Positions 8,706 through 60,756 of a DNA stretch of 64,000 bases are shown piece after piece. This DNA comes from Patescibacteria group bacterium (GTDB lineage Bacteria > Patescibacteriota > Microgenomatia > UBA1400 > PJMF01), in the NCBI GenBank assembly GCA_016861085.1, contig BOKR01000001.1:3271-67270 (forward strand), written 5' to 3'. Numbering within the stretch: position 1 is the first letter of the stretch; each line of letters opens with the position of its first letter. The notes below the pieces were generated by a model, which made no database searches, was not told the origin of the DNA, and worked only from the letters and a program-made list of their open reading frames with translations. Both the position numbers and the translations under genes were made by a program.

Positions 8706-8760
8706 ATGACTTTCTCTTTCCAGTATACCTCAATTTGTGATCGAAAATAATTATCTATGC

Positions 8761-8963
8761 TATAATGCCTCTATGTTGCAAAAAGTCTCAAACAAACTTC
8801 TTCTTACCTCTCAGGATTAAGGGGAGTTGTTTGCGTTTTAAAATCCCCTTACAAGAAGGGGTTTTTTTTCTTTCGGACCCGATCTTTTTCGTCAGAAAAA
8901 GTCGTAGGTACGAAAGAAGTAAGAGGTAACACTACATAGTAAAACAGGTACAATAGGGAGCAT
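8761..8963 (+). promoter_or_regulatory. leuS 5' leader: extended -10 promoter (TGcTATAAT at 8758-8766), terminator/antiterminator switch (hairpin 8844-8861 plus U-run; alternative pairing of 8817-8825 with 8844-8852), conserved about 50-nt downstream element (8868-8916) shared with the thrS leader
   Basis: Hairpin TCCCCTT-ACAAG-AAGGGG followed by 8 U. Upstream TTAAGGGGA is complementary to the hairpin's 5' arm. The 8868-8916 block is near-identical to 53694-53740. Confidence 0.5.
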
Positions 8964-11516
8964 ATGTTTAATCAAAACCAAATAGAAGAAAAGTGGCAGC
9001 AAATCTGGGAAAATAATCAACTGTTTCAGCAGAGTGCTGATTCAACTTCAGTCAAAGATAAGTTGTACTTGTTGTTTGCTTTTGCGTATCCTTCTGGGTC
9101 TGGATTACATGTTGGCCATGTTGAAAGCAAGACTGCTTTAGATATCTTAGCTAGATATTACAGAATGAAAGGGAAGGATGTTTTCTTTCCAGTTGGTTGG
9201 GATGCATTTGGGTTACCGGCGGAAAACTATGCTATTAAAACTGGAATTCACCCAAAAGTTACTACTAAAGATGCAATTATCACGTTTAGAAGACAAATTA
9301 AGCGAATTGGTATTTCATACGATTGGGCAAACGAGCTAGCAACCAATCATCCAGAATACTATAAATGGACACAATGGATTTTTATTCAGATGTTCAACAA
9401 AGGATTAGCATATCAAAAAAATGGTATGGTTAATTGGTGTCCGCAAGACCAAACCGTGCTCGCAAATGAACAGGTGGTTGAAGGCAGATGTGAGCGCTGT
9501 GATAGTCAAGTTGTTCAAAAAGAATTGAAGCAATGGTATTACAAAATTACTCAGTACCAAGAGGAGTTAATTACTGGACTAGATCAAGTTGATTGGCCTG
9601 AAGCCACCAAAGCGCAACAGTTAAATTGGATTGGTAAAAAGACCGGTATCGAAATAACATACAAAATTGCAGATACAGATAAAACGGTTACTTGTTTTAC
9701 TACAAGACCAGATACTAATTTTGGTGCCACATTCGTGGTGATTGCTCCAGAGCACCAGTTTGCCAAAGAAGTCGCGAAGAATAATACAACAGTTGCCGAC
9801 TATTTGGATGCAGCAAGCAAAAAAACAGAACTTGATAGACAGCAAGAGGGCAAAACAAAGACTGGAGCGTTTACTGGTTTTTATGCAATTAACCAGTTAA
9901 CTAACAAAAAAATGCCAATATGGGTGTCTGATTTTGTTTTGGGTGGTTTTGGAACTGGTGCTGTTGTTGGTGTTCCAGCCCATGATGTAAGAGATTTTGA
10001 ATTTTCTCAGTTCGTGAATTCACAAAGTGACAACAAAGCTGATGATGCAGAAAACGCAGATTCTCGAATCGAGGTAATCAGAGTCGTTGTTGGCAGTGAC
10101 GGTGACACTTCGGAAATTACCAAAGTGGAACAAGTGCAAGAAGAAACTGGTACGATGATTAATTCTGACTTCTTAAATGGCTTAGACATTCATGAAGCCA
10201 CACAAAAAATTATGGATTACTTGGAAGAGCAGGGCATGGGTAAACGGGTAACGACCTATCGACTACGTGATTGGCTGATTTCTAGACAGCGCTACTGGGG
10301 GACTCCAATTCCAATTGTGTACGATCCTGAAGGTAATCCACATCCTGTAAAACAGGAGTACTTACCTTGGGAGTTGCCAACGGATGTTGATTTTAAACCA
10401 ACCGGAGAATCACCACTGAAATCAAGCAAGGAATTTATTGAGAGAACACACAAGTATGTATCACAAGTTCATGCAGATTTAATTGCTGAAAAAGGATGGG
10501 ATTCCTCTGGAGAAGGTTGGACTCCAGAGTTTGATACAATGGATACTTTTGTTGATTCAAGTTGGTATTTTTTGCGTTACGTGGATTCAAGAAACAAAGA
10601 TGTTTTTGCCGATGTATCTCAATTGAAAGCGTGGCTGCCGGTCGATTTATACATGATTGGTCCAGAGCACATAGTGTTACATTTGTTGTACTCACGTTTC
10701 TTTACAAAGTTTTTGCGCGATGAAGGATACCTCCACTTTGATGAGCCGTTTATGAAGATGCGTCACCAAGGTATGATCTTGGGCCCAGACAACCGTAAAA
10801 TGAGTAAATCAAAAGGAAACGTCATCAATCCAGATGAAATTATTGAAAAGTTTGGTGCTGACACACTGCGAGTCTATGAAATGTTCATGGGTCCACTAGA
10901 AGCTGACAAGCCTTGGGATATTCGAGCGGTGATTGGAGTATATAAATTCTTACAACGTGTGTATAGCATGGTTAGTGAGAAAGATTTAGCAGAGTTTTCG
11001 CAGCAAGAAAAGACAAAAACAGAACAAAAACTACACCAACTGATTGCTAAGGCCACAGATGATATTCCAAAACTAAAATTCAATACTTCAATTGCCTTTA
11101 TGATGGAGTTTATGAATGTGTGGCAGGATGAGAGTAAAAAATATAGTAAAACACTTTCATCGGAAGACAAGATCAAGTTTATTAAGGTTCTAGCTCCGTT
11201 TGCTCCATTTATGGCTGAAGAGTTGTTTGAAATGGTAACTGGTCAGACCAGTGACAGTGACGACTACAACGGAGTTCACATCACTGTATGGCCTGAATTT
11301 GATCCAAATAAGGCTCAAAGTGACACTGTTATGATTCCCGTTCAGATAAATGGGAAGGTTCGCGCTCAGTTATCGGTTTCTGCAGAGACCGCAAGTGATC
11401 AACAAGTTGTTTTGAATCAAGCGATTGCACTCCCAGAGCTAAAAAAATATCTTGAAGGCAAAGAAATCAAAAAAAAGATTTATGTTGCTGGCAAGATTAT
11501 TTCGTTGGTTGTCTAA
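8964..11516 (+). CDS. leuS: leucyl-tRNA synthetase
   Basis: Class I aaRS motifs: P-S-G-x-LHVGH (HIGH) near the N-terminus, KMSKS (KMSKSKGN), CP1 editing motif TTRPDT. 850 aa. Confidence 0.95.
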   Translation: MFNQNQIEEKWQQIWENNQLFQQSADSTSVKDKLYLLFAFAYPSGSGLHVGHVESKTALDILARYYRMKGKDVFFPVGWDAFGLPAENYAIKTGIHPKVTTKDAIITFRRQIKRIGISYDWANELATNHPEYYKWTQWIFIQMFNKGLAYQKNGMVNWCPQDQTVLANEQVVEGRCERCDSQVVQKELKQWYYKITQYQEELITGLDQVDWPEATKAQQLNWIGKKTGIEITYKIADTDKTVTCFTTRPDTNFGATFVVIAPEHQFAKEVAKNNTTVADYLDAASKKTELDRQQEGKTKTGAFTGFYAINQLTNKKMPIWVSDFVLGGFGTGAVVGVPAHDVRDFEFSQFVNSQSDNKADDAENADSRIEVIRVVVGSDGDTSEITKVEQVQEETGTMINSDFLNGLDIHEATQKIMDYLEEQGMGKRVTTYRLRDWLISRQRYWGTPIPIVYDPEGNPHPVKQEYLPWELPTDVDFKPTGESPLKSSKEFIERTHKYVSQVHADLIAEKGWDSSGEGWTPEFDTMDTFVDSSWYFLRYVDSRNKDVFADVSQLKAWLPVDLYMIGPEHIVLHLLYSRFFTKFLRDEGYLHFDEPFMKMRHQGMILGPDNRKMSKSKGNVINPDEIIEKFGADTLRVYEMFMGPLEADKPWDIRAVIGVYKFLQRVYSMVSEKDLAEFSQQEKTKTEQKLHQLIAKATDDIPKLKFNTSIAFMMEFMNVWQDESKKYSKTLSSEDKIKFIKVLAPFAPFMAEELFEMVTGQTSDSDDYNGVHITVWPEFDPNKAQSDTVMIPVQINGKVRAQLSVSAETASDQQVVLNQAIALPELKKYLEGKEIKKKIYVAGKIISLVV

Positions 11517-22231: not shown

Positions 22232-22234
22232 CAA

Positions 22235-23773
22235 GTGGGCATGTATTTCCCAGGCTCAACGGGAGTTGGACTTGTTACAAGCCAATTGGAACGACTTACT
22301 GTTAACTCTGTTGGTAATGTCGGTATAGGTACCACAACACCTGTGGGTAAACTAAATGTCGAAGGTGCAGTTACAGGTAAGGCGTTGGCAATATTTAACG
22401 AAACTGGAAACCAAGATATTTTAACAGCTAGTGCAAGTGGTTCAACAAAATTTGCAGTTACTAACGGTGGAAACATATTGTTACGAGGAACGTCCCCTTC
22501 TATTGATACTGGTAACTTGGCAACGCTAACTTTTAGTGTTGCAAATGCAAATAGAGTGCAGATAGATGGTGCCTATCTTGAAACAAATTTTTTGAGATCA
22601 CATTCTGGTGCAGGTACTTCATTAATTGTTAGAGGTAATAATTTACAAACTGCCAATATTTTTGAGGTAGAGGATAGTAATGGTACTGATTTTTTCACAA
22701 TTGACACTAGTGGCAACGTCGGCATCGGCTCCACAACTCCAGGTCAAAAACTAGATGTAGTCGGCAACGCCCGTTTCTCTGCTGTTGGTTCTGATGCATA
22801 TGCCTCAGATTTACATCTCACTGCAGATGGAACTCTCACAACCGCTGCATCTGATATTAGACTGAAGAAAGATTTTGTTGAGCTCAATGACAGTGCAACA
22901 TTAGACAAAATTCTACAACTTAAAACCTACAACTTCAATTGGAAGAGTAACAACTCTGCTGATATTGGTATGGTTGCCCAAGAAGTAGCTACTATCTTCC
23001 CAGAACTTACCTTCACCAACCAAGTTGATGGATACATGGGTATCAATTATTCAAGATTCTCTTCATTACTCATTAGTGGAATGCAGGCTCAACAAGCACA
23101 GATTTCATTATTACAAAATGCCTTAACATTTAATTCAGACGGTTCTGTAGTTGTTGCAACCACATCGGCTCAAGAAAACAATTCAGAGGAAAACACGGCT
23201 CAACAATTACTTGGCAGTTACGCTTCTCTTTCTGAAAATATTTGGAAGTTCCTTGTTGAAGTGAGATTCTCAGCTTTGGCAGTCTTTGAAAACTCTGTGC
23301 AATTTTTGAGTGCCGTTGTCTTCAAAAATGACGTTATTGTTGATGGCAATTTGATTCTGAATCACAATCAGGCTGGAACAGTAACCATTCCTACTGGCAA
23401 GGCAGGAGCTCGAGTTACGTTTAGCCAAGCATTTGAGCAAATGCCAATCATTACACTAACATCAACTCAAAAAGTTGCTGGCGAATACTGGATTTCTCAG
23501 ACAAGTAACTCTGGTTTTACTATTGAGTTTTCTCAAGCTCAAACACAAGATATCGCTATTAACTGGCAAGTCTCAGTTACCAATAGCGGTGAAGGTGTAG
23601 CAGTTGAAGCATTTGATTTTGGTACAAATAGTGAACAGGCACAAGAAACGCAAGATGTCTCACAGACAAACCCAGAGCCAATTACTGAAGATTTAGCAGA
23701 AGTTGTAGAGGAAGCCACCCAAGAGTCGGCGATTCTTGGCGCAACTGATTCTGGAGAGGTGGTTGCAGAATGA
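22235..23773 (+). CDS. C-terminal portion of the fibre protein, containing a peptidase S74-like intramolecular chaperone auto-processing domain
   Basis: Starts with the same GNVGIGTTTPVGKLNVEGAVTGKALAIFNETG repeat as the upstream ORF. SDIRLKKDFVELNDSATLDKILQLKTYNFNWK…GMVAQEVATIFPELT…GYMGINYSRFSSLLISGMQAQQAQISLLQ matches the tailspike/endosialidase C-terminal chaperone domain. Same frame as 18080-22231, separated by one TAA. Confidence 0.75.
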   Translation: MGMYFPGSTGVGLVTSQLERLTVNSVGNVGIGTTTPVGKLNVEGAVTGKALAIFNETGNQDILTASASGSTKFAVTNGGNILLRGTSPSIDTGNLATLTFSVANANRVQIDGAYLETNFLRSHSGAGTSLIVRGNNLQTANIFEVEDSNGTDFFTIDTSGNVGIGSTTPGQKLDVVGNARFSAVGSDAYASDLHLTADGTLTTAASDIRLKKDFVELNDSATLDKILQLKTYNFNWKSNNSADIGMVAQEVATIFPELTFTNQVDGYMGINYSRFSSLLISGMQAQQAQISLLQNALTFNSDGSVVVATTSAQENNSEENTAQQLLGSYASLSENIWKFLVEVRFSALAVFENSVQFLSAVVFKNDVIVDGNLILNHNQAGTVTIPTGKAGARVTFSQAFEQMPIITLTSTQKVAGEYWISQTSNSGFTIEFSQAQTQDIAINWQVSVTNSGEGVAVEAFDFGTNSEQAQETQDVSQTNPEPITEDLAEVVEEATQESAILGATDSGEVVAE

Positions 23774-29700: not shown

Positions 29701-29718
29701 ACCAATTCAAGTAATTAA
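23770..29718 (+). CDS. giant membrane-anchored fibre protein (1982 aa) with GIGTT repeats and C-terminal peptidase S74-like intramolecular chaperone domain; paralogue of 18080-23773
   Basis: ATGA start overlap with the previous ORF. N-terminal signal/TM. VEDEISENSLVFRLKIYFLEAIHGISAKFDTDVEVGND… paralogous to the 18080 gene. SDVRLKDVSGVSSKGLSDLMNINVYDYSFKADSNKRLHTGFLAQELYQIYPDAVT…QVDYGKLTPLIIKSIQDQQKQIESL is the S74 chaperone domain. Acidic C-terminal tail. Confidence 0.85.
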   Translation: MKKRTIFLLAFILTSAYFGVGSVNSWLRGTDTTGTVLGESDQPTSNGLVAQNGVSSGFGTSVGSDLPTAPVSTGVVKAVEDEISENSLVFRLKIYFLEAIHGISAKFDTDVEVGNDLTVGNDVIVNNDLEVGGDLIIGDTIITPDGITAENIIYSLTAGTGVSLSGTQDVTITNTDLGSSQNIFKNFKIGSNTISASSNDDTLTWTSGTGISLSNSGKTITISASGSDLNVSGWTDDGTAVRLTTSTDNVGIGTATPGYKLHVVGTSYFSGQATFAGGTVISSGIDNSSGGITNAGPITGATGLTSSGTITFSGLSTGIVHSNGSGVLSSSALNLAGGATEITGTLPTTNGGTGITSYATGDIIYSSATNTLTTLGIGSTNEVLTVAGGVPTWATITGGGGLCSNCLVNNPGSTQTITPAAATAIGLVIKQASSGSVDTFRVESNDGSSVYFKIDSSGNVTLGNQTSSGVFTVSPSNTDPISISPVAQGAGQFTGTITSEDLTAARTWTFPDATGSVCLTTGNCAGVGGQIGGSGTTNYIAKFSNSSNITTSLLYDDGNNVGLGTSSPVHLFQIMGAKIGKALTVLNETGDQAIFVASSSGTNRFIIQNDGNVGIGTSTPTSLFHVNGAVDFDSTFGVNGATTLGSTLDVTGLATFGGNVGIGTTTPTSALQVYGTDPQIRLTRNGGYTLTFDAFDGGGSPNIVSSGPSLKFLTSTSNNFLTTADNAFGTLNGHLGVAVTGLYVTGKGVNSYVTSAFRSANSNQTGDLIRMYDSSNDILGQFVPISTTDQRLRFVLYNTLETTVTNYERLTIYPDTTNSIFRIEAESGGTGTLRNLVLQGGGGNVGIASIAPGRTLDVVGTGRITDTGSTTPVLTIDQNDSSNNATTLRLEHGGGGENSRRIIEAISGGSEVFRLFPTGKIETIVNGGSTDYDAAIFNQTDTSTAHAGAALQLNHYGTGAGSSRVLTAFNAAGGSPSEIMFLQPDGTFYVRGNAGVGTTAPIGKLNVEGAAIGKALAILNETGDQAIFVASASGTNRFIIQNGGNVGIGSITPAANLHVYQESPTPNQIMFQVGTGAVATRFTVDEDGDGHFGGDVDFRTLLTGNGTVTGPSHSFVNDTNLGMYRYGTDTLSLATADADRLIIDASGNIGIGTTAPGTQLELYGNKIHIRLFDTFGSGAIIRETSDNLILQSQAGSIVGISGAADGTTSFQFQNSSNVSRFNVNDLGYVGIGVNATASVGSDTAAVNINGAKTGKALFGLNETGNQAIFAASASGTNRFLIQNDGNVGIGTTTVSSLFTISESNSATSLTTFDSTVRLQNLNSGDSTFSRIGFYDTTYLGGITFVNRGQYSSDIRFETRGGSVSNWPVTRMIVTDGGAIGVNHANPLSQLQVNAQSNTGNYILSDWNSTGNKIPAAIFSATNNGGSTPAAAEPTLVLGRKGVGGQSFDNIVDFKLRRYEVSSTEPRTALDIGLQHTNSATTTDVLTLLSNGNVGIGTSAPAHALEVNGNIAVEQFLYHRGDTDTFFRFGTNQWQVVAGGVQFFEFDGGATNVGAFNYNNLDVDFRIDGDTNDGVFFVDGALENIGIGTTVPGAKLHLITDAADYAAEIYNDGNATTRAGLLIQAGLDDQTAVGPSTLIQFNDGDGGAVGSITFGNSLTAYNTSSDVRLKDVSGVSSKGLSDLMNINVYDYSFKADSNKRLHTGFLAQELYQIYPDAVTAYLDDTNKYWQVDYGKLTPLIIKSIQDQQKQIESLALEIDATGKVISHGSKEVTPDESEATEALESSTIQDLSSHATISDLVWTFIQEVIFTVKTTFLASVEFVKDVTFRGSIKFSGDTVGKFVVPAGALRVEVPFDFAFSQAPTVYLSAQSQIIGGYSLESVSTSGFVLKFEVAQTSEKVFDWLAVLSSDENTATIKVLEESSTSLQSIDNVDQDGEVGGATTEGSTDTQEAVEETPNPEPEETTSQASSEAEASVSATNSSN

Positions 29719-33392: not shown

Positions 33393-33722
33393 TAAGCAAG
33401 CGTCACACCTAACTCGCAATTAGGAATCCTGGGTTGCATAATGTGAGTATCAAAATTGCGATACTGAACACAATTTGCATATTCAGAACGCCTTTGTCGG
33501 AAATGGCAAACGTATTGGTGAATCGTTATTTCACTAGACTTACTTTCAGGTTTATTATCACGATCTTTTGTGAAAAAAACAGGAAAGAGTTGCAAAGGTA
33601 TGAGTTAGAAATAATTCTTACACCAGAGGGTGGTACCGCTTTTTATTTTGATAACCATAGATTAAAAAGCCCCTTTTGTCTCTTGAGCACAAGTGTGCCT
33701 GAGGATAAAGGGGGCTTTTTTG
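33393..33722 (+). promoter_or_regulatory. T-box riboswitch leader of argS
   Basis: Conserved T-box sequence AGAGGGTGGTACCGC (33625-33640), followed by intrinsic terminator AAAGCCCC…GGGGGCTTTTTT (33666-33722). Long structured leader with a Stem-I-like hairpin 33440-33500. Downstream gene is an aaRS. Confidence 0.65.
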
Positions 33723-33781: not shown

Positions 33782-35617
33782 ATGGAAATTACCAACATTT
33801 TAAAACAATCAATACTAGCAGCTCTCAAAGATATGAATATCTCTGCTACGGAATCAGAAGTCCTCATAGAATACCCAGCAGATCCTACCCATGGTGACTT
33901 TGCTTCAAATGTTGCGATGACACTCTTTGGAAGGCTGAAAAGAGAATCTGGTGCTGGTTTTCAATTCACCACACCCAGAGAATTCGCTCTTACAGTTACA
34001 GATAACTTGAACAACCAGAAAATTAGAGAAGTAAGCACCATAGCTGTGGCGGGTCCAGGATTCATTAACTTTACTATTTCTGACGCGTTTTTGCTGTCCA
34101 AAATGGGCTTGATTATCCAAAATCGGGGTAACGTCGTCGAACAGTTCGGAAACGGCAAAAAGATCGTTGCAGAGTACTCATCGCCAAACATTGCAAAACC
34201 ATTTACCGTTGGACATTTGCGATCCACAATTATCGGTGATTCGCTTGCAAATATTTTTGAGAGTTGTGGCTATACAGTGTTTAGAGATAACCACCTTGGG
34301 GACTGGGGAACACAGTTCGGCAAGCAAATTTATGCAATCAAGACTTGGGGTGACGAGGCTCAGATTGAAGCAGCTGAAAATCCGGTTAAAGAGTTGGTTA
34401 AATTGTATGTCAAATTCCATGAGGAAGCAGAGAAAGACCCAAGTATAGAAGATCAAGGCAGAGCTTGGTTTAAGAAACTTGAAAAAGGTGATGCTGAAGC
34501 CAGAAGACTTTGGGAGAAATGCATCAACTGGTCATGGAAAGAGTTTGAAAAAATTTATACAGTTCTCAATGTTTCTTTCACCGAAAATAACGGCCGTGGA
34601 TACGGAGAATCGTTCTTTGAAGACAAAATGGGCGCAGTTATTGCCGAGCTGAAAGACAAAGGCATTTTGCAGGAAAGCAAAGGCGCACAACTTGTGTTTT
34701 TTCCAGAAGATAAGTACCCGCCATTGATGATATTGAAAAATGATGGGTCAACACTTTACAGTACCAGAGATTTAGCAACAGATAAATTCAGGCTAGAAAA
34801 ATACGGCTCGGACATTGTGATTTTCAACGAGGTTGGATCCGAGCAAAGTTTGTATTTTCAGCAGTTGTTTGAGATCGAAAATATGCTGGGATGGTACAAG
34901 GATGGCCAAAGAGTGCATGTTGGACATGGCTTGATCAGATTTGCTGATAAGAAAATGTCTACTAGAAAAGGGAACGTTATCTGGCTAGAGGACGTTTTAA
35001 GCGAAGCATACAGCCGTGTTGAGACTATGAGCAAGGAGCTTGAAACAGACTCAATTTGGAAAATTGCTGTTGGGGCACTCAAGTGGAACGATTTAAAAAG
35101 AAAAATGAACTTACCAATGGTGTTTGACTGGGATGAATTGACAAACATTAAGGGTAATTCAGGTCCGTATATGCAGTACACCTTTGTTCGATGCCTCAGT
35201 GTGCTCAACAAAGCTCAAAATGAGGTGTTTCAATCGTTTTCAGCCGAGGAAAAATCTTTGAAAAGTGAGTTAGAGAATGACAATATCTTAAATACTATTA
35301 TTTTACATTATGATACATTGCTTAATAGTAAATCATATTTAAACCATAAATTAAACAAAGATGAAAAAGATGTATTGCGAAACCTTAATAAATATTCTGA
35401 TATAGTTAAGTCATCAGCGCTTGAATTTGCTCCACACCACATCGCAAACTATCTGTATGAGCTTGCACAAAGCTTTAATACGTTCTATGCGAATCATAAA
35501 ATTATTACTGAAGATTCAAAGGCCACAGATCTGCGATTGCTGTTAGTGGTGGCTGTAGCATATACAATTCAGCACGGTTTGGGGCTACTTGGAATTCGAA
35601 CTGTTGAAAAAATGTAG
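33782..35617 (+). CDS. argS: arginyl-tRNA synthetase
   Basis: N-terminal Arg-tRNA-binding domain. Class I HIGH-like SSPNIAKPFTVGHLRSTIIGD. DALK-type anticodon-binding C-terminus. 611 aa. Confidence 0.9.
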   Translation: MEITNILKQSILAALKDMNISATESEVLIEYPADPTHGDFASNVAMTLFGRLKRESGAGFQFTTPREFALTVTDNLNNQKIREVSTIAVAGPGFINFTISDAFLLSKMGLIIQNRGNVVEQFGNGKKIVAEYSSPNIAKPFTVGHLRSTIIGDSLANIFESCGYTVFRDNHLGDWGTQFGKQIYAIKTWGDEAQIEAAENPVKELVKLYVKFHEEAEKDPSIEDQGRAWFKKLEKGDAEARRLWEKCINWSWKEFEKIYTVLNVSFTENNGRGYGESFFEDKMGAVIAELKDKGILQESKGAQLVFFPEDKYPPLMILKNDGSTLYSTRDLATDKFRLEKYGSDIVIFNEVGSEQSLYFQQLFEIENMLGWYKDGQRVHVGHGLIRFADKKMSTRKGNVIWLEDVLSEAYSRVETMSKELETDSIWKIAVGALKWNDLKRKMNLPMVFDWDELTNIKGNSGPYMQYTFVRCLSVLNKAQNEVFQSFSAEEKSLKSELENDNILNTIILHYDTLLNSKSYLNHKLNKDEKDVLRNLNKYSDIVKSSALEFAPHHIANYLYELAQSFNTFYANHKIITEDSKATDLRLLLVVAVAYTIQHGLGLLGIRTVEKM

Positions 35618-48026: not shown

Positions 48027-48078
48027 GTACTCTGCATATTTTGTATCTATGACTTTTTTCAAAAAAGACTGGTCATAA

Positions 48079-48107
48079 GAAAAAAAATGGCCCTCAAGGA
48101 GGGCCAT
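48079..48107 (-). terminator. intrinsic terminator for the HTH gene (minus strand), possibly bidirectional
   Basis: ATGGCCCTC-AAG-GAGGGCCAT hairpin preceded on the plus strand by A8, which is U8 on the minus strand. Confidence 0.65.
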
Positions 48108-48131
48108 TCTGAGTCAATTTTCTAAGAAGAT

Positions 48132-48401
48132 CTACATTTCTTCGCCTGTTACTCCAAGTAACCAGAGTACTGCTTCTTTTTTATATCTTCTATCACCGCG
48201 AGAATTAATTCTAATCGCCGGGAGCTTGCCTCGTTTTCCCCATCTCTTAATGGTGAGGGGAGAAACGCGCAGTAAATCTGCAACTTCACGAACAGTGAGC
48301 AGGTCTGGCAAGTTCTTAATATCTAATCTACTTGCGTCATCAGCTCTGCCGGTTTTTTTATCTTCTTCTTGTACTGCAGTGGGCTGAACTTGATCGTTCA
48401 T
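48132..48401 (-). CDS. small helix-turn-helix DNA-binding protein (excisionase/MerR-like HTH)
   Basis: …LLTVREVADLLRVSPLTIKRWGKRGKLPAIRIN… is a classic excisionase-family HTH. 89 aa. Confidence 0.7.
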   Translation of the reverse strand: MNDQVQPTAVQEEDKKTGRADDASRLDIKNLPDLLTVREVADLLRVSPLTIKRWGKRGKLPAIRINSRGDRRYKKEAVLWLLGVTGEEM

Positions 48402-50978: not shown

Positions 50979-51062
50979 AAATCAATCGAAAATTTGATTG
51001 TGTGCCTTACGGCATATTTCGTACCAGCAGAATTTTTTAACAAAAATTCTGGGTCCGAAAGA

Positions 51063-51464
51063 TTATTTTAATTCAACAACACAACCTGCTGCTTCGAGAT
51101 CTTTCTTTGCTTGTTCAGCAACTTCTTTCTTAGCACCTTCCAAAACTGTTTTTGGAGCTGATTCTACGAAAGTTTTAGCTTCACCTAAACCAAGTTCTGG
51201 TTTGAGGGTTCTAACAGCCTTAATAGCACCGATTTTGTTTGAACCTGCATCTTTGAGGATGACATCAAACTCAGTTTGCTCTTCAGCTGGAGCTGCTGCT
51301 GCGGCTGCTGGCATAGCACCCATCATCATAGGAGCTGCTGCGGTAACACCGAATTCTGATTCGAGTGCTTTTACTAATTCTGAGACTTCCATTAAAGAGA
51401 GTTCTTTAATTGCGTCTACCAATTTTTGCACTTTTGGAGAAAGTGCTTTGTTTTCATCTGACAT
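51063..51464 (-). CDS. rplL: 50S ribosomal protein L7/L12
   Basis: Ala/Met-rich hinge [22 protein letters not shown]-terminal domain …[35 protein letters not shown]…. Confidence 0.95.
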
Positions 51465-51535
51465 GTGAGTCCTTTCTTATTATTAAACTGTTGTCAAATT
51501 TATACTATGCCAATTGCATGGCGGCTGGTTTATTT

Positions 51536-52045
51536 TTAGGCTGCCTGTTTGTCGGCGATAGCCTTAAGAGCATAAACCAAGTCTCTTTGATTTGCTTTAA
51601 GAACGTTGACCATTCCTGTAGCAGGAGCTTGAAGGGTTCTGATAAGCATAGCGATAAGTTCGTTTTTGCCTGGAAGTTTGCTGAGAGCCTCAACTTGTGC
51701 AGGTGAGAGAACAGCATCATCCATGAATCCTTCTTTAATTGTTAACTTTTCTGAATCCTTTTGAAAAGCGAATAAAGCCTTAATGGCTGCAACTTCGTCT
51801 TGATTTGAAAAGACGACTGCGTTCATTCCCTCTAGAGATTGAGAAAGTTTGCCTTTACCAATAGCAATGTCGATTAATGTATTTTTGGTAACAAGAACTT
51901 CACCGCCAGCATCAGCAACTGCTTGTCTGAATTTGACTTGGTCATTTGCACTTGTTCCGGAATAATCAACGATTGCCAATGATTTAGCCTGGGCGATTTT
52001 GTCTTTTAAGACTTCGACCATTTTTTGATTTTTTTGGTTTGGCAT
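51536..52045 (-). CDS. rplJ: 50S ribosomal protein L10
   Basis: …[37 protein letters not shown]… Sits upstream of rplL. 169 aa. Confidence 0.9.
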
Positions 52046-52968: not shown

Positions 52969-53162
52969 GATATGGTTATTTTAACAGAAATTTTTGTAAG
53001 TAATTATTAAGTATTGCATTCTGTTTTAGTTTGAGTTAGAGTATATCTCTAATGTTAAGTAATTATTGGCTTACCAGCAATCATACTTGCCACTTCCAAA
53101 TTAAGATGGGAGAGGTTTGTGTAGTCGCAAGGTAAAACAATAAAATTACATAACAGCGCGCA

Positions 53163-53196
53163 CAACCTCTCAAGCACACGAGAGGTTTTTTAACAT
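53163..53196 (+). terminator. intrinsic terminator-like hairpin with upstream competing (antiterminator-like) sequence; possible small RNA or attenuator
   Basis: AACCTCTC-AAGCACAC-GAGAGGTT followed by TTTTTT. Upstream GAGAGGTTTGTG (about 53105-53116) is complementary to the hairpin's 5' arm. Confidence 0.4.
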
Positions 53197-53384
53197 CTTA
53201 AAGAGTGTTTTTTTGTAAGTGTCTTTGTCACTTTAGAGTGAATAGATGCGTAATGGTTCTAGGCCAGAGCCCAAAAGAAAAAAGCTAAGGTATTAAAAGC
53301 TATAGTTTTCTGAAACGGAAAAGCACTCATACGGATGAAAATAATAGTAATAAGTGTGCAAGAAAGCAAACAGGAGGTGTTTGT

Positions 53385-53564
53385 ATGAAATTAGAAGAAA
53401 CTTCTGCCCCCTATAGCAGAGAAACCTTAGCACGATTGGCAAAGATGCTTGAGAAGTACGAGGTTCTTCCTTGGCTTAATCCAGCTACTAATGCCATTAG
53501 CATTAAGGATTTTAGTTTTATGCAACATCGTCCCTTTATGCAAGTATTTTTTCCTCAAGAATAG
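53385..53564 (+). CDS. small ORF (59 aa) with strong Shine-Dalgarno
   Basis: AGGAGG sits 7 nt upstream of the ATG. 59 codons, below the 60-aa cut-off of the ORF track. Ends just before the thrS promoter. Confidence 0.3.
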   Translation: MKLEETSAPYSRETLARLAKMLEKYEVLPWLNPATNAISIKDFSFMQHRPFMQVFFPQE

Positions 53565-53806
53565 GTCATGGTATAATCCACGTGATGCATAAAGTATTGA
53601 TCGTAACCACCACTACAACTACAATCCCTGTTTAGGGTGTGGTTAGTAGTGTTTAAAGTAAATCACGAAAGCTCCCCTAAACGGGGAGCTTTTTCTTTCG
53701 GAGCCGACCTTTTTCGTTAGAAAAAGTCGTAGCTACGAAATATGCAAAGCAACGCTATGCTTAGGACGATATACTATATAATAAGTACACAAGATTAAGG
53801 AAACAC
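53563..53806 (+). promoter_or_regulatory. thrS 5' leader: extended -10 promoter (TGgTATAAT 53569-53577), terminator/antiterminator switch (hairpin 53670-53690 plus U-run; GTTTAGGG 53630-53637 complementary to CCCTAAAC 53675-53682), conserved about 47-nt element 53694-53740
   Basis: Hairpin AGCTCCCC-TAAAC-GGGGAGCT followed by TTTTT. The downstream block TTCTTTCGGAGCCGACCTTTTTCGTTAGAAAAAGTCGTAGCTACGAAA is about 94% identical to 8868-8916. Contains ACCACC (Thr codons) and UGGU upstream of the hairpin. Confidence 0.5.
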
Positions 53807-55573
53807 ATGAACGAACAACACAGTCAAGAAGAACTAGAAAAATTGAGACACTCAGCTGCTCATTTATTGGCAGCAGCAGTAATGGAATTGTACCCAGAGG
53901 CAAAACCAACAATTGGCCCAGCCACAGATGAAGGCTTTTATTATGACTTTGATTTTGGTTCAGCACCAATTAACGAGGATAGTTTAGTCGAAATCGAAAA
54001 GAAAATGCGTTTTTTGGTTAAAAACTGGGGAGCATTTGAGCGCCAAGAAGTCAGCGCTGAGGTGGCATTACAAAACTACAGATACAACTCATACAAGACA
54101 GAGCTTATTGATGAGATTGTCCAATCTGGTGAAGTCCTTACTTTGTACAAGTCAGGGAATTTTGTTGATTTATGTCGTGGAGGTCATATAGAAAAACCAT
54201 CTGTGAATCTCAAATATTTTAAATTACTTTCACTAGCGGGTGCATATTGGCGTGGAAGTGAACGAAATAAGATGCTTACTCGCATTTATGGCACAGCATT
54301 TTTCTCTCAACAAGAACTTGATGAGTACCTAAAAATGAAAGCTGAAGCCAAAGAGCGAGATCATAGAAAACTTGGAAAAGAATTGGGCTTGTTTGTCTTT
54401 TCTGACACTGTTGGTAAGGGTCTACCACTGTGGACTGCAAAAGGGGCAACAATTCGTCGTGAGTTAGAACGATTTGTAGTTGATGAAGAAATCAAGCGAG
54501 GGTACCAACATGTCTATACGCCAGATATCGCAAACTTAGATTTATACAAAAAGTCTGGTCACTACCCATACTATAAAGAAAGTATGTATGCGCCAATTCA
54601 GATTGAGGAAGAAGAATATATGCTTCGGCCAATGACGTGTCCGCATCATTTTGAGCTCTATAACGCGCATCCTCATTCATATAAAGAGCTACCTATGCGT
54701 ATTGCCGAACTTGCGAAGTTGTATCGATTTGAAAAGTCAGGAGAACTCACTGGTTTAATTCGAGTACGCAGTTTTTGTTTGGCAGACTCACACATCGTCT
54801 GTATGAAATCACAAGCAAAGTCAGAAATTAACGGCGTTTTGGATTTGATAGAGTACATGGCCCAAACATTTGGATTACAGCCAGGAGTTGATTTATCTTA
54901 TCGCTTATCGCTTGGTGATAGGGCAGACGATAAAAAATATTTCAAAGATGATGCCTCTTGGGATTTCGCAGAAGATGCATTGCGCCAAGTGTTGCAGGAG
55001 AGAGGCTCAAAATTTGTTGAAGCAGAAAAAGAGGCAGCTTTTTATGGTCCAAAGATTGATGTGCAAATGCGAAATGTGAATGGTAAAGAGGATACTGCTT
55101 TCACGGTTCAGTATGATTTTGTGATGCCACAGCGATTTGATTTGCAGTATGTAAATGAGAATGGTGCAGTTGAGCAACCAGTTGTTATTCATCGCTCATC
55201 TATTGGTGCAATTGAAAGGACAATAGCATTTTTGATCGAAACATTTTCTGGAAAATTCCCAGTTTGGCTCGCTCCTGTCCAGGTTAAAATACTTCCTATA
55301 TCAGATAAATATCTTGATTATGCACAAGAAGTATATTCACAACTGCTTCGGGAAAATATTAGGGTAGAGTTAGACAATCGCTCAGAGCGCTTACAAGCAA
55401 AGATTCGTGATGCTCAAATGGAAAAAGTGCCATACATGTTAGTTGTCGGGGAACAAGAAGTTGCCGATAAGACTGTCGCGGTTAGAAGTAGAGATACTAA
55501 AGAACAAAACGTTGTGTCGATCACTGATTTTCTTGCAAACATAAAGTCTGAGATTCAAGAACGAAAGCTATAG
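53807..55573 (+). CDS. thrS: threonyl-tRNA synthetase (lacks N-terminal TGS domain)
   Basis: Second additional domain, class II catalytic core (…MTCPHHFELYNAHPHSYKELPMRIAELAKLYRFEKSGELTGLIRVRSFCLADSHIV…), anticodon-binding domain. 588 aa. Confidence 0.9.
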   Translation: MNEQHSQEELEKLRHSAAHLLAAAVMELYPEAKPTIGPATDEGFYYDFDFGSAPINEDSLVEIEKKMRFLVKNWGAFERQEVSAEVALQNYRYNSYKTELIDEIVQSGEVLTLYKSGNFVDLCRGGHIEKPSVNLKYFKLLSLAGAYWRGSERNKMLTRIYGTAFFSQQELDEYLKMKAEAKERDHRKLGKELGLFVFSDTVGKGLPLWTAKGATIRRELERFVVDEEIKRGYQHVYTPDIANLDLYKKSGHYPYYKESMYAPIQIEEEEYMLRPMTCPHHFELYNAHPHSYKELPMRIAELAKLYRFEKSGELTGLIRVRSFCLADSHIVCMKSQAKSEINGVLDLIEYMAQTFGLQPGVDLSYRLSLGDRADDKKYFKDDASWDFAEDALRQVLQERGSKFVEAEKEAAFYGPKIDVQMRNVNGKEDTAFTVQYDFVMPQRFDLQYVNENGAVEQPVVIHRSSIGAIERTIAFLIETFSGKFPVWLAPVQVKILPISDKYLDYAQEVYSQLLRENIRVELDNRSERLQAKIRDAQMEKVPYMLVVGEQEVADKTVAVRSRDTKEQNVVSITDFLANIKSEIQERKL

Positions 55574-55601: not shown

Positions 55602-57554
55602 TTAAGAAGAAAATGATTTAGGAATCTCTACATGGAATGTATTGCCAACAGTAGGATTGGGCTCGTACCAAATCTTGCCTTTTAGCTGTTCTAGTAGTAA
55701 TTTAGTGAGGTATAAAGAAAGTCCTAATCCTTCTGGATTCATTTTAATTGCTTCTTTTCCTCTGTATAAGTTGGTAAATAGTTTGCCTTGAACCTCGTCA
55801 GGGATTTTTTTGGCAGAATCCGAAACACTCACGATGACACTATTTGGCTGATCTGAAGCAGTTATTGTGATTTTTCCGCCTTGCTCAGAATACTGTACCG
55901 CATTTGAGATTAAAGCATGAAGGATAATTCCAACAGCATTCTTATCATGTTTAAGAGTTTTAGGTTCTGAATACTTTTTTAGTACACTCAATTTTTTTAC
56001 CTCAATTTTATTAATAAATTCTTTTGAGATTGTTTCGATGAGTTCAGGGAGCGAAAATTCTTCAGGATTGATTGGAAATAGCCCTGTCTCTATTTCAGAG
56101 ACATCTGAAAGGGTATTGGCAAGGGTAATCATTCTTTTGATTTGAGATTCAAAGATATTCCAAATCTCTCTTTCTTGGGTAGTGAGAATTTTGGTAACTT
56201 TGGGGGAGAGAAGTTCAACTGCCCAACGCATTGCCCCAGGGGGGGTGCGAAGCTGATGCTGGACTAGGGCGATAAACTCTTTTTTTGCTTTTTGAAGTTG
56301 GTGTTCTTCAGTGATATCTATAGCGAGCACAACAACTTTCTCAACGAGAGTATCACGCTTAATTGGAGTGGCAATCATTCTAAAAATATGGCTGCCAATT
56401 GAAGCTTCATATTTGACTTCTTGGCCTTGAATTGCAAGCCTTATATTTTTGGTGATCTCTTGGTTGTCTTTATAGAGTTCAAAAATTGAGGAGCCAGTGA
56501 GTTTATTTGGATCATCAATGACATCTCTAACTGATTTTCCTGCCGCGAACAATACTATACCATTTGTATCGATCTCAGAGAGAATTACAGGAACATTATC
56601 AATTACTTTGCTAAAATATCGCTCTTTTTCAGCTAGTTGTCCAAGGGCTGTTCTGCGAGCGGTACGTAAGGATAGTATTAAGATCCAAGAAATTAGAATG
56701 AAGAGAATACCGCCAATAATTGTTGGAAGTACCCAAGGTGGTACAACTTCAATTCTTGTTACAAGTGAGGATAACCCATACTTTCGTAGCATCCCTTCGA
56801 ATGTTTTTTCTTGGTCATTTTTCATTATTCTTATCCAAGTATCAATTTTTTCTCTGAGGTAACTACTGTTTACAGCATTCCTTGTAAAGGCAAATCGTAA
56901 CTCAGTCGGACTGAAAATAACGTCTGATGCCTTAATATTTTTGTATTTTTTTTCTGCTTCAAGCCCGCTAATTCTGCTCACAATTGCTGCATCAACTTCT
57001 CCATTCTCGAGGAGAGTAAAGACTTCATCATACTGCTCTTTTTCTACAAAGCGTATGTCTAGCTCAAAGGCACCAATATATTGGTTGATACCGGCAGGTC
57101 CTTCCATATAAACACTAGACCTTAAAATTGCGACATCTTTTCCGCTTAAATCTTTAAATGAATCTAAAGTCATATTTTTGTTTGTATATACGACACCCCA
57201 ACTGCTCAGAATTGTTTCATTTGAAAAGTCAAAAAGCAGTTCACGATCACCTGTTACGGCCACATCAACGGCGATATCAATTTCTCCAGATTCAAGTTGT
57301 TGTAAATTTTGTTCGAAAGTGCCAGGTACAAATACTAATTCCCAGTTTTCTTTTTCAGCAATATAGATAAGGACGTCGGCAAACAGACCGGAAACTTGGC
57401 CGTCAGAGGTGACAGAAATTTTGGGGGGATTATGATAAACACCAACTTTGACAATTCTTTTTTCTTGAGCAAATGTGGGTTTCACACATATAAAAAGGGC
57501 AGTAATCAGGATAAATATGCTGAAAAAAAGACGGTGAGTTAAAAAATTGCGCAT
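55602..57554 (-). CDS. sensor histidine kinase with periplasmic solute-binding (SBP family 3) sensor domain
   Basis: Signal peptide. SBP3-like domain (…KVGVYHNPPKISVTSDGQVSGLFADV…IDIAVDVAVTGDRE…). TM helix, PAS-like region, HisKA H-box LVQHQLRTPPGAM, and HATPase_c (N, G1, G2 boxes). 650 aa. Confidence 0.75.
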   Translation of the reverse strand: MRNFLTHRLFFSIFILITALFICVKPTFAQEKRIVKVGVYHNPPKISVTSDGQVSGLFADVLIYIAEKENWELVFVPGTFEQNLQQLESGEIDIAVDVAVTGDRELLFDFSNETILSSWGVVYTNKNMTLDSFKDLSGKDVAILRSSVYMEGPAGINQYIGAFELDIRFVEKEQYDEVFTLLENGEVDAAIVSRISGLEAEKKYKNIKASDVIFSPTELRFAFTRNAVNSSYLREKIDTWIRIMKNDQEKTFEGMLRKYGLSSLVTRIEVVPPWVLPTIIGGILFILISWILILSLRTARRTALGQLAEKERYFSKVIDNVPVILSEIDTNGIVLFAAGKSVRDVIDDPNKLTGSSIFELYKDNQEITKNIRLAIQGQEVKYEASIGSHIFRMIATPIKRDTLVEKVVVLAIDITEEHQLQKAKKEFIALVQHQLRTPPGAMRWAVELLSPKVTKILTTQEREIWNIFESQIKRMITLANTLSDVSEIETGLFPINPEEFSLPELIETISKEFINKIEVKKLSVLKKYSEPKTLKHDKNAVGIILHALISNAVQYSEQGGKITITASDQPNSVIVSVSDSAKKIPDEVQGKLFTNLYRGKEAIKMNPEGLGLSLYLTKLLLEQLKGKIWYEPNPTVGNTFHVEIPKSFSS

Positions 57555-58845: not shown

Positions 58846-59586
58846 TTATTTAGTAATTTCAAGTTTCACACTTGGACTCATTGTTGCAGATATTGAAGCT
58901 GAGAGCAGTCTGCCTTTTGCAGCTGTTAAAATAGCATCAATATTTTCAACTAGAGCTTTTTCATCCATTGAAGTTTTACCGATTGAAACGTGAATTACTG
59001 GTGTTTTTTTCTCTGATTTAAGATCAAAAGCACCTTTTTCAAGTTCAGCTTTTTTGATTTCTGGTTTTGGAGTAACGGTACCATTCTTTGGGTTTGGCAT
59101 TAAGCCTTTTGGTCCCAAAACTCGGGCAAACTTTGCTAATTTTGGCATGTATTGTGGGGCAGTGATCAAAACATCAAAGTTGATATTCCCAGCTTCAATC
59201 TCAGCTAAAAGAGCATCATCTACTATAGCAACACGTACAGTTTTACCTGTTGAGTGAGGTAATGTAATAGTCGCGACTTTACCTACTTCTTTTACAACAC
59301 CATCCAAGGTAATTGTGCCATCGAATTTTGTGTAAGAGAGTTTTTTGATAGTAGCAACTGCTTCAGTCACAGAATATTTTCTGGTTTTATCAACTTTTGC
59401 TCTAGTGCTAACGTATTTTTTGCTTCTGGATCTTTTTGGAGTAGTAGTTTTTACAACTTTCTCAACTCCTTCTTCTGATTTTGATGCTTCAGATTCGACA
59501 ACCTGCTGGGTAGCTGGTGTTTCTGCTTGCACTACTTTAATTGTATCTTCTGTCGAACTCATGTCGACATTTTTCTTTTTAGCCAT
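58846..59586 (-). CDS. rplA: 50S ribosomal protein L1 with about 50-aa Lys/Glu-rich N-terminal extension
   Basis: …KYSVTEAVATIKKL…, …RVLGPKGLMPNPKNGTVT…, …IHVSIGKTSM… 246 aa. Confidence 0.9.
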   Translation of the reverse strand: MAKKKNVDMSSTEDTIKVVQAETPATQQVVESEASKSEEGVEKVVKTTTPKRSRSKKYVSTRAKVDKTRKYSVTEAVATIKKLSYTKFDGTITLDGVVKEVGKVATITLPHSTGKTVRVAIVDDALLAEIEAGNINFDVLITAPQYMPKLAKFARVLGPKGLMPNPKNGTVTPKPEIKKAELEKGAFDLKSEKKTPVIHVSIGKTSMDEKALVENIDAILTAAKGRLLSASISATMSPSVKLEITK

Positions 59587-59685
59587 ATGGCCTCCTTATC
59601 TTCCTCTGTCGTTTTTGTGCGGGTTCTCACTTTTTGAAATCCCGTTTATTGCAATGCAATCTGTACGAAAGGGGTATTATTGATA

Positions 59686-60111
59686 TTACTCTGCGATTTT
59701 GACACCCATGCTTCTTGCTGCACCAATGACGGTATTCATTGCTGATTCAAGATTTTTGGTGTTCATGTCTGCCATTTTTTCTTGAGCGATTTCTTTTACT
59801 TGCTCTTTGGTTAGAGTGCCAACAAACTCTCTGCCGGCAGTTTTACTGCCACTCTTAAGTTTAAGTGCATGTTTAATCATTGCTGAAGTTGGTGGTAACT
59901 TTAAAACAAAAGTAAAAGATCTGTCTTGGTAAACTGTGATTTCTGCAGGAATGACTTGGCCTCTTTTGTCTGAGGTTTTATCGTTATATTGTTTCAAGAA
60001 ATCCATCATGTTGATACCAGCTTGACCTAAGATAGGTCCTACTGGAGGAGCTGGAGTAGCACTCCCTGCTGGAAGGTTTAACTTAAGGACGTTAAGGATT
60101 TTTTTTGCCAT
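59686..60111 (-). CDS. rplK: 50S ribosomal protein L11
   Basis: …LNLPAGSATPAPPVGPILGQAGINMMDFLKQYN… 141 aa. Confidence 0.95.
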   Translation of the reverse strand: MAKKILNVLKLNLPAGSATPAPPVGPILGQAGINMMDFLKQYNDKTSDKRGQVIPAEITVYQDRSFTFVLKLPPTSAMIKHALKLKSGSKTAGREFVGTLTKEQVKEIAQEKMADMNTKNLESAMNTVIGAARSMGVKIAE

Positions 60112-60135
60112 ATGTTTTTTTCGCGCGCGCTTTCT

Positions 60136-60756
60136 TTAGACTTTCTTTACTTGTAAGAAGTCGAGGGTAACCGGAGTTTCTCGACCAAAAATATTTACTA
60201 ATACTTCAACTTGACCTTTTTCTTCATCAATAGAGTTAACGGTACCCAAAAAGTCATTAAACGGACCATCAACGATTCTAATAGCTTCACCTTCTGTGTA
60301 ATCTGCTTTGTATTGTGGTGCAGCTTGAGTCATGTATTTCTTGATTGCATCAACTTCATGTTTTGGAAGTGGGGTGGGTTTATTACCAACACCAACGAAT
60401 CCAGTGACTCCTTGGGTGGTTCGCACAGCCAACCATGAGTTGTCAGTGAGTTCCATTTGAACGAGCATATAGCCTGGGAAGATTTTTTCAACAACATTTT
60501 TTCTTTGACCACGCTTAATCTGAATTTTTTCTTGAGTTGGGATCAAAACTGCAATAATTTTTTCAGTCAGGTCAAGTGTTTCAGCCCGTTGCTTGAGTGC
60601 TTCAGCGACCTTATTTTCATGACCAGAGTAGGTGTGAACCACATACCAGCGAGCTTTTTTATTTTCAGCTTCAGAAATGATCACGAGGTTTGGGGTCTGC
60701 ACCTTAACTTCTTGAACTTCTGGAGCTTGTAATGGTTGTTGTGTTTGATCCGTCAT
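60136..60756 (-). CDS. nusG: transcription termination/antitermination factor NusG
   Basis: NGN domain (WYVVHTYSGHENKV…). C-terminal KOW (GEAIRIVDGPFNDFLGTVNSIDEEKGQVEVLVNIFGRETPV). 206 aa. Confidence 0.9.
   Translation of the reverse strand: MTDQTQQPLQAPEVQEVKVQTPNLVIISEAENKKARWYVVHTYSGHENKVAEALKQRAETLDLTEKIIAVLIPTQEKIQIKRGQRKNVVEKIFPGYMLVQMELTDNSWLAVRTTQGVTGFVGVGNKPTPLPKHEVDAIKKYMTQAAPQYKADYTEGEAIRIVDGPFNDFLGTVNSIDEEKGQVEVLVNIFGRETPVTLDFLQVKKV

Follow-up and report, generated by a model that had tools for sequence, protein, structure and literature searches.

A probable leader-peptide attenuator upstream of thrS and a dispersed hairpin repeat in a Patescibacteria contig

The 64,000-nt stretch analyzed here (the window) covers positions 3,271 to 67,270 of contig BOKR01000001.1 from a Patescibacteria group bacterium (GenBank assembly GCA_016861085.1). 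Within it, the threonyl-tRNA synthetase (ThrRS) gene thrS is preceded by a promoter element, a short open reading frame (ORF) carrying six consecutive threonine codons, an intrinsic terminator and a hairpin repeat, referred to below as the block, which is also found at other genes (Table 1). The thrS leader probably represents a ribosome-mediated (leader-peptide) transcription attenuator sensing charged tRNA-Thr (we put the probability at roughly 0.8), and an amino-acid-responsive function of this leader is very likely. If so, the element is an unusually clean example of a known control mechanism, and the mechanism itself is not new. From sequence comparison, the block was concluded to be a separable, dispersed and strand-specific hairpin repeat lying outside the Thr/Leu sensor.

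Table 1 Features of the thrS and leuS leaders and copies of the block in the window (CM, covariance model; MFE, minimum free energy; SD, Shine-Dalgarno)
Feature	Position	Strand	Score or remark
thrS (threonine--tRNA ligase, 588 aa)	53807..55573	+	TIGR00418, 667.6 bits (cutoff 383.65)
P1, extended -10 promoter element TGGTATAAT	53569..53577	+	sequence reading
Leader ORF MHKVLIVTTTTTTIPV, 16 codons	53585..53635	+	sequence reading; TAG stop 53633-35
Six consecutive Thr codons, ACC ACC ACT ACA ACT ACA	53606..53623	+	proposed sensing site
Predicted protector (1:2) hairpin	53611..53651	+	53611-23 with 53638-51, small CCCU/AGGG hairpin enclosed; MFE of untranslated leader
Antiterminator 5' strand UCCCUGUUUAGGG	53625..53637	+	leader stop codon inside
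Intrinsic terminator AAAGCUCCCC-UAAAC-GGGGAGCUUU, then UUCUUUC	53668..53699	+	
Antiterminator 3' strand CCCUAAACGGGGA	53675..53687	+	left-arm end, loop and most of right arm of terminator
Conserved block, hairpin repeat	53695..53749	+	CM R1, 70.8 bits
P2, candidate second promoter, -10 hexamer TATAAT	53777..53782	+	30 nt upstream of thrS ATG
thrS SD, AAGGA	53797..53801	+	
Third strong block copy	51008..51061	-	CM, 63 bits, E ~1e-13; 2 nt after rplL stop, upstream of rplL terminator
Degenerate fourth block copy	48030..48079	-	CM, 21.6 bits, E 0.005-0.013; directly after terminator 48084-48110 (-)
leuS	8964..11516	+	TIGR00396, 920 bits
leuS leader	8758..8924	+	
leuS leader promoter element TGCTATAAT	8758..8766	+	
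leuS leader ORF MLQKVSNKLLLTSQD	8773..8820	+	
Three Leu codons, CTT x3	8797..8805	+	
leuS leader terminator	8845..8869	+	
leuS leader block	8870..8924	+	

A promoter upstream of thrS had been proposed in an earlier sequence-only reading of this DNA, and it is present as the extended -10 element TGGTATAAT, with the leader ATG (53585) 7 nt downstream of the box. Seven thrS leaders were compared, for which the loci of relatives (numbered with an L below) were fetched and two more were found via the block pattern, together with five leuS leaders. The motif TGnTA(T/C)A(A/C)T occurs 6-11 nt upstream of the leader ATG in 11 of these 12 leaders (6/7 thrS and 5/5 leuS); the spacing is 6-8 nt in nine of the 11, and the leader without the box is the degenerate one of L005. 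As there is no room for an SD sequence between the -10 box and the leader ATG, the leader ORF is expected to be leaderless or nearly so, and it is probably translated from a leaderless 5' end. Its six threonine codons, which went unmentioned in the earlier reading of this copy, are the sole run of at least five Thr codons in the window when all six frames are considered; the number of runs of six expected from base composition is 0.007 per window. When the whole window was scanned for the attenuator architecture, only the thrS and leuS leaders were recovered, in addition to one spurious intragenic match.

The hairpin with a TAAAC loop and a U-run that had been placed at 53670-53695 is there. 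Its core consists of AGCTCCCC (53670-77), TAAAC (53678-82) and GGGGAGCT (53683-90), followed by TTTTTCTTT, and the stem can be extended to AAAGCUCCCC/GGGGAGCUUU. The core hairpin has a folding energy of approximately -16 kcal/mol, is followed by UUUUUCUUU and is present in the MFE structure of the whole leader, which as a whole folds with z = -5.7 relative to shuffled sequences. A simple terminator scan did not list this terminator (53668-53699), although the weaker leuS terminator was listed, and negatives of that scan are thus unreliable; extension of the stem into the T-run may be the cause.

The segment that contains the leader stop codon (53625-37) is complementary over 13 bp to the terminator segment 53675-87, and the two can form an antiterminator. 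In all seven thrS leaders, the leader stop codon falls within the upstream 16-mer that has the strongest complementarity to the terminator. The antiterminator duplex has a dG of -19 to -24 kcal/mol, compared with -8 to -11 kcal/mol in shuffled upstream regions, and 0-1 of 200 shuffles match it. The terminator loop and the antiterminator 5' strand covary (UAAAC/GUUUA in the clade of the window and ACAUG/CAUGU in L010 and L026), with two positions changing on both sides. This covariation supports the antiterminator pairing specifically, because the terminator itself leaves its loop free to vary. Covariation was judged by duplex folding and direct reading rather than by column counts, as the MAFFT alignment was mis-registered near the terminator for distant orthologues. 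In the predicted fold of the untranslated leader, a protector hairpin would hide the antiterminator strand.

Folding was then modelled for five thrS leaders with the RNA masked from the 5' end to the ribosomal A-site +13 nt, an assumed footprint. When no mask was applied to the leader in the window, the protector hairpin and the terminator both formed. Placing the A-site at the second or third Thr codon of the run gave the antiterminator in place of the terminator, and placing it at late Thr codons or the stop codon gave the terminator. An early or middle Thr mask flipped the MFE structure from terminator to antiterminator, and a late or stop mask flipped it back, in three of the five leaders (the window, L002 and L026).

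From the sequence features, their conservation and covariation and these thermodynamic alternatives, we infer the following course of events. Transcription would start at or next to the AUG at 53585, and the 16-codon ORF would be translated from the leaderless 5' end. When Thr-tRNA is plentiful, the ribosome would pass the six Thr codons, reach the UAG inside 53625-37 and cover the antiterminator 5' strand, so that the terminator (53668-99) would fold and end transcription after about 110 nt. Under a shortage of Thr-tRNA, the ribosome would stall early in the Thr run and melt the protector, leaving 53625-37 free to pair with 53675-87; this pairing would consume the terminator and RNA polymerase would continue into thrS. 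If the ORF is not translated at all, the protector (53611-23 with 53638-51) would sequester the antiterminator and termination would result. A switch between protector, antiterminator and terminator is the classical three-state logic of the trp, thr and pheST attenuators. Three of the features by which such an attenuator is recognized were found together at thrS, namely a short ORF of cognate codons, an intrinsic terminator before the gene and, computationally, a mutually exclusive antiterminator.

The leader is conserved among relatives. Six Thr codons are found in the leader ORFs of L001 (MHKKYNATTTTTTIPV; 87 % ThrRS identity), L002 (MHKKLIATTTTTTIPA; 86 %) and L010/L016 (Ca. Pacebacteria, MNQILVQTTTTTTSIPM; 74.5 %), five in L026 (MYRRNRTTTTSTISPM; 74 %) and four in L024 (MYKLELITTSTTIIPV; 83 %), each ORF ending in a stop codon. 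Thus, five further thrS leaders keep four to six Thr codons together with the complementarity, and a sixth, the degenerate leader of L005 (MYYKILTTILTMNPV and a stop codon; 76 %), keeps three and has an eroded U-tract. Among the four leaders with six Thr codons, differences within the run are confined to third codon positions. The leader is absent from L004 and L025 (76 % and 78 % ThrRS identity). The thrS leaders at L024 738-850 and L005 2747-2860 resemble decaying attenuators, with only TTSTT or TT..T left of the Thr run and with erosion of the terminator U-tract (GCTTTAGTTTATAAT, GCTTTATAATTG), while the antiterminator complementarity is kept.

The same conservation bears on the possibility that the arrangement arose by chance, as the terminator of an upstream 59-codon ORF combined with fortuitous ACN triplets. 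The region is A/C-rich and a terminator behind the upstream ORF would be ordinary, but only 0.007 such runs are expected per window, a parallel arrangement exists at leuS, and six other genomes preserve the ORF with its Thr run, the position of the stop codon within the antiterminator and the spacing of the promoter. We regard a chance origin as scarcely credible, and it is effectively refuted by the conservation.

The leuS leader follows the same design. Its ATG lies 6 nt downstream of TGCTATAAT, the stop codon of its ORF is located within a segment, UUAAGGGGA, complementary to one arm of the terminator (UCCCCUUA), and the terminator is followed by U8. Four leuS orthologues (67-81 % LeuRS identity) encode MLQKNNNLLLLNL, MLYRNSNELLLTL, MLQRKSVKLLLTL and MQKEALFLPLLLELH, each closed by a stop codon and followed by a terminator, and the design with Leu codons is thus found in five genomes including that of the window. 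Outside the block, the resemblance between the thrS and leuS leaders is one of analogy and not of homology, as one has an ORF of Thr codons and the other of Leu codons, each with its own terminator. Masked folds of leuS leaders switched only in the window and in L027, and only these two antiterminators clearly exceeded the shuffled controls; for three of the five genomes, the leuS antiterminators were not shown to exceed them. The leuS antiterminators are short, and on these results the case for leuS is mainly based on conservation of the design.

Several observations weigh against the attenuator. The comparison draws on few orthologues (7 thrS, 5 leuS), whose sequences are not phylogenetically independent. 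In L001 and L010, the MFE structure is the antiterminator already without a ribosome, and the terminator appears only once the mask reaches late codons or the stop. The codons at which the fold switches depend on the assumed footprint (A-site +13 nt), and in the window sequence the terminator persists with a stall at the first Thr codon of the run or at its codons 4-6. The leuS antiterminators are weak as well as short, and three of the five hold the terminator in the MFE structure under every mask. The attenuator also appears to be dispensable, as the leader has been lost in L004 and L025 and its U-tract is eroded in L024 and L005. Finally, if the candidate promoter P2 were real, the attenuator would govern just part of thrS transcription.

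P2 is suggested by a hexamer (TATAAT or TATACT) that 8 of 9 orthologues, among them the attenuator-less L025, have 25-39 nt upstream of the thrS ATG, and it may be a second, unregulated promoter supplying basal thrS expression. If P2 is active, basal expression from P2 might be combined with expression from P1 that is inducible by Thr limitation via the attenuator. The same hexamer, its presence at a locus without the leader and the strength of the leader terminator would suit a different arrangement, in which the short ORF and its terminator are an independent unit (a small ORF or small RNA) and thrS is transcribed only from P2 with no regulated read-through. This arrangement is unlikely, since it leaves unexplained why six codons match the amino acid of the downstream synthetase, with Leu codons at leuS, and does not account for the covarying complementarity between the terminator, loop included, and the 13-nt strand in which the stop codon lies.

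The leader was also compared with known RNA families. At gathering score, Rfam identified only a tRNA in the whole window, and neither a T-box nor any other family at the thrS leader. The best sub-threshold matches over the thrS leader were Phe_leader (RF01859, 31.3 bits) and Thr_leader (RF00506, 24.2 bits), against a gathering score of 55, and a search of both leaders in E-value mode returned only sub-threshold leader-peptide families and noise. Phe_leader and Thr_leader are proteobacterial leader-peptide attenuators. As the scores are below gathering, this resemblance was taken to reflect the design (ACN codons and a terminator) and not membership.

In Firmicutes and E. coli, thrS is controlled by a T-box and by mimicry of the tRNA anticodon arm, respectively. 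A T-box, or autoregulation by ThrRS through mimicry of the tRNA-Thr anticodon arm as in the E. coli thrS operator, would therefore be a familiar control for this gene, and a divergent T-box seemingly precedes argS in the same window. Nevertheless, we consider either of them very improbable here. The T-box model (RF00230) gave no match in 53000-54000 at E-values up to 10 and none at gathering (93 bits) in the window; a T-box sequence and a candidate specifier loop are absent from the thrS leader, which measures just about 110 nt up to the terminator. The loops of the hairpins near the SD are variable (GUUA, GUCA, GAA and others), unlike the tRNA-Thr anticodon loop, and the only conserved hairpin is shared with genes other than thrS. 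An operator of the E. coli type was also rejected by direct reading, as the conserved hairpin near the SD is the block, which has a variable loop and is also found at leuS, rplL and rplT.

Among characterized systems, the thrS leader is closest in design to the ribosome-mediated attenuators. Ribosome-mediated attenuation of a synthetase gene is established for E. coli pheST, as cited in PMC1262725. As in pheST (pheM) and in the trp, thr, his and leu attenuators, the thrS leader contains a run of regulatory codons, a stop codon positioned to block the antiterminator and three mutually exclusive hairpins, and, as in pheST, the regulated gene is a synthetase. Unlike in those E. coli attenuators, the leader ORF is apparently leaderless instead of SD-led, and the host is a Patescibacterium with a reduced genome. 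T-box leaders of aminoacyl-tRNA synthetase (aaRS) genes (RF00230) likewise raise synthetase production if charging of the cognate tRNA is low, and use a terminator/antiterminator read-out. However, a T-box reads uncharged tRNA by RNA-tRNA pairing, whereas the proposed sensor at thrS is a translating ribosome.

Leaderless leader peptides at synthetase genes have been observed by RNA-seq in Streptomyces lividans TK24, in which leuL2-leuS, thrL-thrS, trpL2-trpS and alaL-alaS were reported (PMC8079986), and classical attenuators have been predicted before leuS and trpS in Streptomyces (PMC1262725). In S. lividans, a hairpin and a U-run follow the three Leu codons of leuL2 (MRAVRLLLSEPR); thrL contains no more than two Thr codons and lacks a clear terminator (PMC8079986). 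The leaders described here share with those of Streptomyces a short ORF of cognate codons, leaderless there and probably so here, directly upstream of a monocistronic aaRS gene, and the leuS leader resembles leuL2 in its three Leu codons and the subsequent hairpin and U-run. They belong to another phylum, without sequence similarity, and the thrS leader differs from thrL in its six consecutive Thr codons, its canonical terminator and its 13-bp covarying antiterminator. Ribosome-mediated attenuation has also been predicted for hisS paralogues in bacilli (PMC2965389), and leaderless polycysteine upstream ORFs act as attenuators in mycobacteria, where they are amino-acid-responsive cis regulators (bioRxiv 10.1101/834739). 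The mycobacterial system and the thrS leader have in common a short ORF, probably leaderless at thrS, in which one amino acid is enriched. The polycysteine system is reportedly not built on a canonical terminator/antiterminator switch, and is said to control Cys-related operons and not aaRS genes. In the literature searched, no paper joined threonyl-tRNA synthetase with a leader peptide and threonine codons, and none tied Patescibacteria to leader peptides or attenuators.

The block directly follows the terminator at both thrS and leuS. In the sequence-only reading, a conserved block had been placed at 53694-53740, and this block is real and far beyond chance. Positions 8858-8922 and 53683-53747 share 85 % identity over 65 nt (family D13), and the pattern TTTCGGASCC-N-AGSTACGAAA has two matches in the window compared with 0 expected. 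In 12 copies, the block consists of a helix P1 (UUUCG/CGAAA), a conserved G.A mismatch, a helix P2 of 3 bp, a 2-nt 3' bulge (UA or CA), a variable helix P3 and the tail AAAUAUGCA. In the alignment of these copies (A2), 93 % of the cells are paired, and both partners have changed in 7 of the 17 pairs; controls in which the partner was slid by 1-3 columns were 40-57.5 % paired. In two copies, the pairs flanking the G.A mismatch are A-U/G-C instead of G-C/A-U.

A covariance model (R1) was built from the block copies and used to scan the window and the loci of the relatives. Two copies not mentioned in the earlier reading of the thrS copy were found, a third strong one at rplL and a degenerate fourth one directly after the terminator of a gene for an 89-aa HTH_17/MerR-like protein (48132-48401, minus strand). 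Outside the window, the block follows the rplT terminator in L007, a locus of the related metagenome-assembled genome (MAG) that also carries L002, and the terminator of a pilin-like gene in L020, where two full copies and a split third are present. Tandem arrays occur in L001, L020 and L029. The number of copies per orthologous leader is 0, 1 or 3 for thrS and 0, 1 or 2 for leuS. The block is absent from the thrS leaders of L024 and L026 and the leuS leaders of L027, L028 and L030, in which the ORF and the terminator are kept. At thrS it is kept in lineages down to 74.5 % ThrRS identity, and the rplL copy was not found by R1 in the rplL regions of L002, L005 and L025. The P3 subtypes (GAUCUUUUU..., GCUAUUUUGG... 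and AGAAUUUUU...) are common to different loci and genomes and do not track orthology. All block copies seen have the orientation of local transcription.

In L020 (metagenome contig Ga0100403_1018469, minus strand, approximately 2030-2170), the 5' and 3' halves of the third copy flank the second, as in a nested or rearranged array. Behind this array is a tRNA-like sequence with a 7-bp acceptor stem and a GTTCAATTCC T-loop, which neither ARAGORN nor Rfam called as a tRNA.

The sequence-only reading had treated the thrS and leuS leaders as two instances of one arrangement of promoter, antiterminator/terminator and conserved block, and had taken its occurrence at two aaRS genes as an argument for function. 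The promoter, the antiterminator/terminator switch and the block were indeed found at thrS, with a parallel at leuS, but not as one shared leader element. That thrS and leuS share a single riboregulatory element, with the block as part of an aaRS-specific regulatory or sensing apparatus, would agree with a covarying hairpin that is 85 % identical in both leaders, stands at the same place directly after the terminator U-tract and is retained at thrS down to 74.5 % ThrRS identity. We hold this to be quite improbable, given that strong copies follow rplL, rplT and the pilin-like gene, that the five leaders named above lack the block despite having the ORF and the terminator, that the copy number varies from 0 to 3 at one locus with P3 subtypes distributed across loci and not by orthology, and that the 5' halves of the thrS and leuS leaders are non-homologous. 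The argument from two occurrences thus does not carry over to a shared element. Since the sensing parts are non-homologous and the block is not aaRS-specific, the functional case is based instead on the cognate-codon leader ORFs and their conservation.

The abundance of the block was assessed by searching for the strict pattern. In 185,579 species genomes, seven loci matched. Three of these (in two genomes) are real, and the remaining four lie within ORFs of unrelated phyla and match by chance. Of 11 loci in metagenome contigs, three are real, and the sole match in viral contigs was due to chance, lying within a coding region. These searches of species genomes, metagenomes and viral contigs gave no sign of a phage-borne or abundant element. 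Related genomes contain 1-2 strict-pattern matches each, and no transposase domain, whether of the type associated with repetitive extragenic palindromic (REP) sequences (RAYT) or of any other, was found among the approximately 45 window ORFs scanned.

We consider it most likely that the block is a REP-like element whose presence in transcribed intergenic regions is tolerated or of slight benefit to RNA stability or insulation. Several dispersed imperfect palindromes in transcribed intergenic DNA, often in tandem, are what characterizes such elements, and this is what was found for the block. Like REP sequences, bacterial interspersed mosaic elements (BIMEs) and 'mobile terminators', it is a short imperfect palindrome beside stop codons or terminators, single or in tandem, with presence/absence polymorphism between relatives and subfamilies common across loci. 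It differs from them in its low copy number (three strong copies and one weak in 64 kb), in the transcription-oriented placement of all copies and in its basal helix with a conserved G.A mismatch and a 2-nt bulge. The variable copy number, the distribution of P3 subtypes across loci and the absence of the rplL copy in relatives point to turnover rather than a fixed regulatory role.

As a less likely alternative, the block could be a new type of structured RNA motif. In Microgenomates-group Patescibacteria, it would label transcripts of the translation apparatus and be recognized by a dedicated protein or RNase coordinating their processing or stability. The contexts of the block that were found without bias adjoin translation genes (thrS, leuS and rplL in the window, thrS and rplT in one MAG and thrS in a Pacebacterium), the single exception being the locus of the pilin-like gene. 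This possibility was kept in consideration because the mismatch and the bulge are conserved, all copies seen are in sense orientation and translation genes are frequently nearby.

Other descriptions of the block were tried and rejected. It does not always follow a terminator, as the rplL copy precedes its terminator. The AUG-containing tail does not start a conserved ORF, as frames and lengths are not conserved between copies. It is not a kink-turn, as tandem G.A pairs next to the bulge are absent, nor a minus-strand terminator, as there is no U-run after it on that strand.

Candidate-phyla-radiation bacteria are uncultured, have tiny genomes and are mostly unable to make their own amino acids, and to our knowledge almost nothing is known about their gene regulation. 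If the attenuator works as proposed, transcription and translation would be tightly coupled in these organisms and leaderless mRNAs efficiently translated. They would also monitor tRNA charging and adjust synthetase levels, with a ribosome as sensor at thrS and leuS and, seemingly, a T-box at argS. At approximately 110 nt, the element is small and portable and could be tested in a heterologous host or in a cell-free system. For annotation, the 16-codon ORFs should not be called as protein genes, nor should an aaRS-specific riboswitch be annotated at the shared block.

Further observations were made around thrS and elsewhere in the window. The 59-codon ORF upstream of the leader (MKLEETSAPYSRETLARLAKMLEKYEVLPWLNP..., 53385-53564, plus strand) ends 5 nt before the leader promoter and has no match in Pfam or NCBIfam. 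A small ORF of similar sequence is found at the same position upstream of thrS in L003 and L024, and small ORFs were called at this position in L001 and L005. For the 588-aa ThrRS and its relatives, the Pfam matches were tRNA_SAD, tRNA-synt_2b and HGTP_anticodon only, and the N-terminal TGS domain was not listed, which suggests that ThrRS is shortened in this clade. Together with a histidine kinase gene (55602-57554, minus strand), thrS interrupts an otherwise conserved nusG / rplA ... rplJ-rplL neighbourhood (51063-52045 and 58846-60756, both minus strand). Relatives have the same synteny, with thrS beside rplJL/rplKA.

The argS gene (33782-35617) seems to have a divergent T-box leader at 33452-33722 (plus strand). 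This leader contains AGAGGGTGGTACCGC (approximately 33626-40), followed by a long terminator-like hairpin, AAAAAGCCCCTTT...AAAGGGGGCTTTTTT, and its flanks could form the usual antiterminator around the UGGUACC bulge. Its score against the Rfam T-box model was 18.2 bits (E-value 0.096; gathering score 93).

At 18080-29718 (plus strand), there are three consecutive very large ORFs (1383, 512 and 1982 aa) that are rich in diverged internal repeats. They contain a recurring AATGTTGGAATTGGAACAAC unit (NVGIGTT-like), and segments of 100-280 nt located approximately 5.6 kb apart are 70-80 % identical. These ORFs look like genes for giant repetitive surface proteins.

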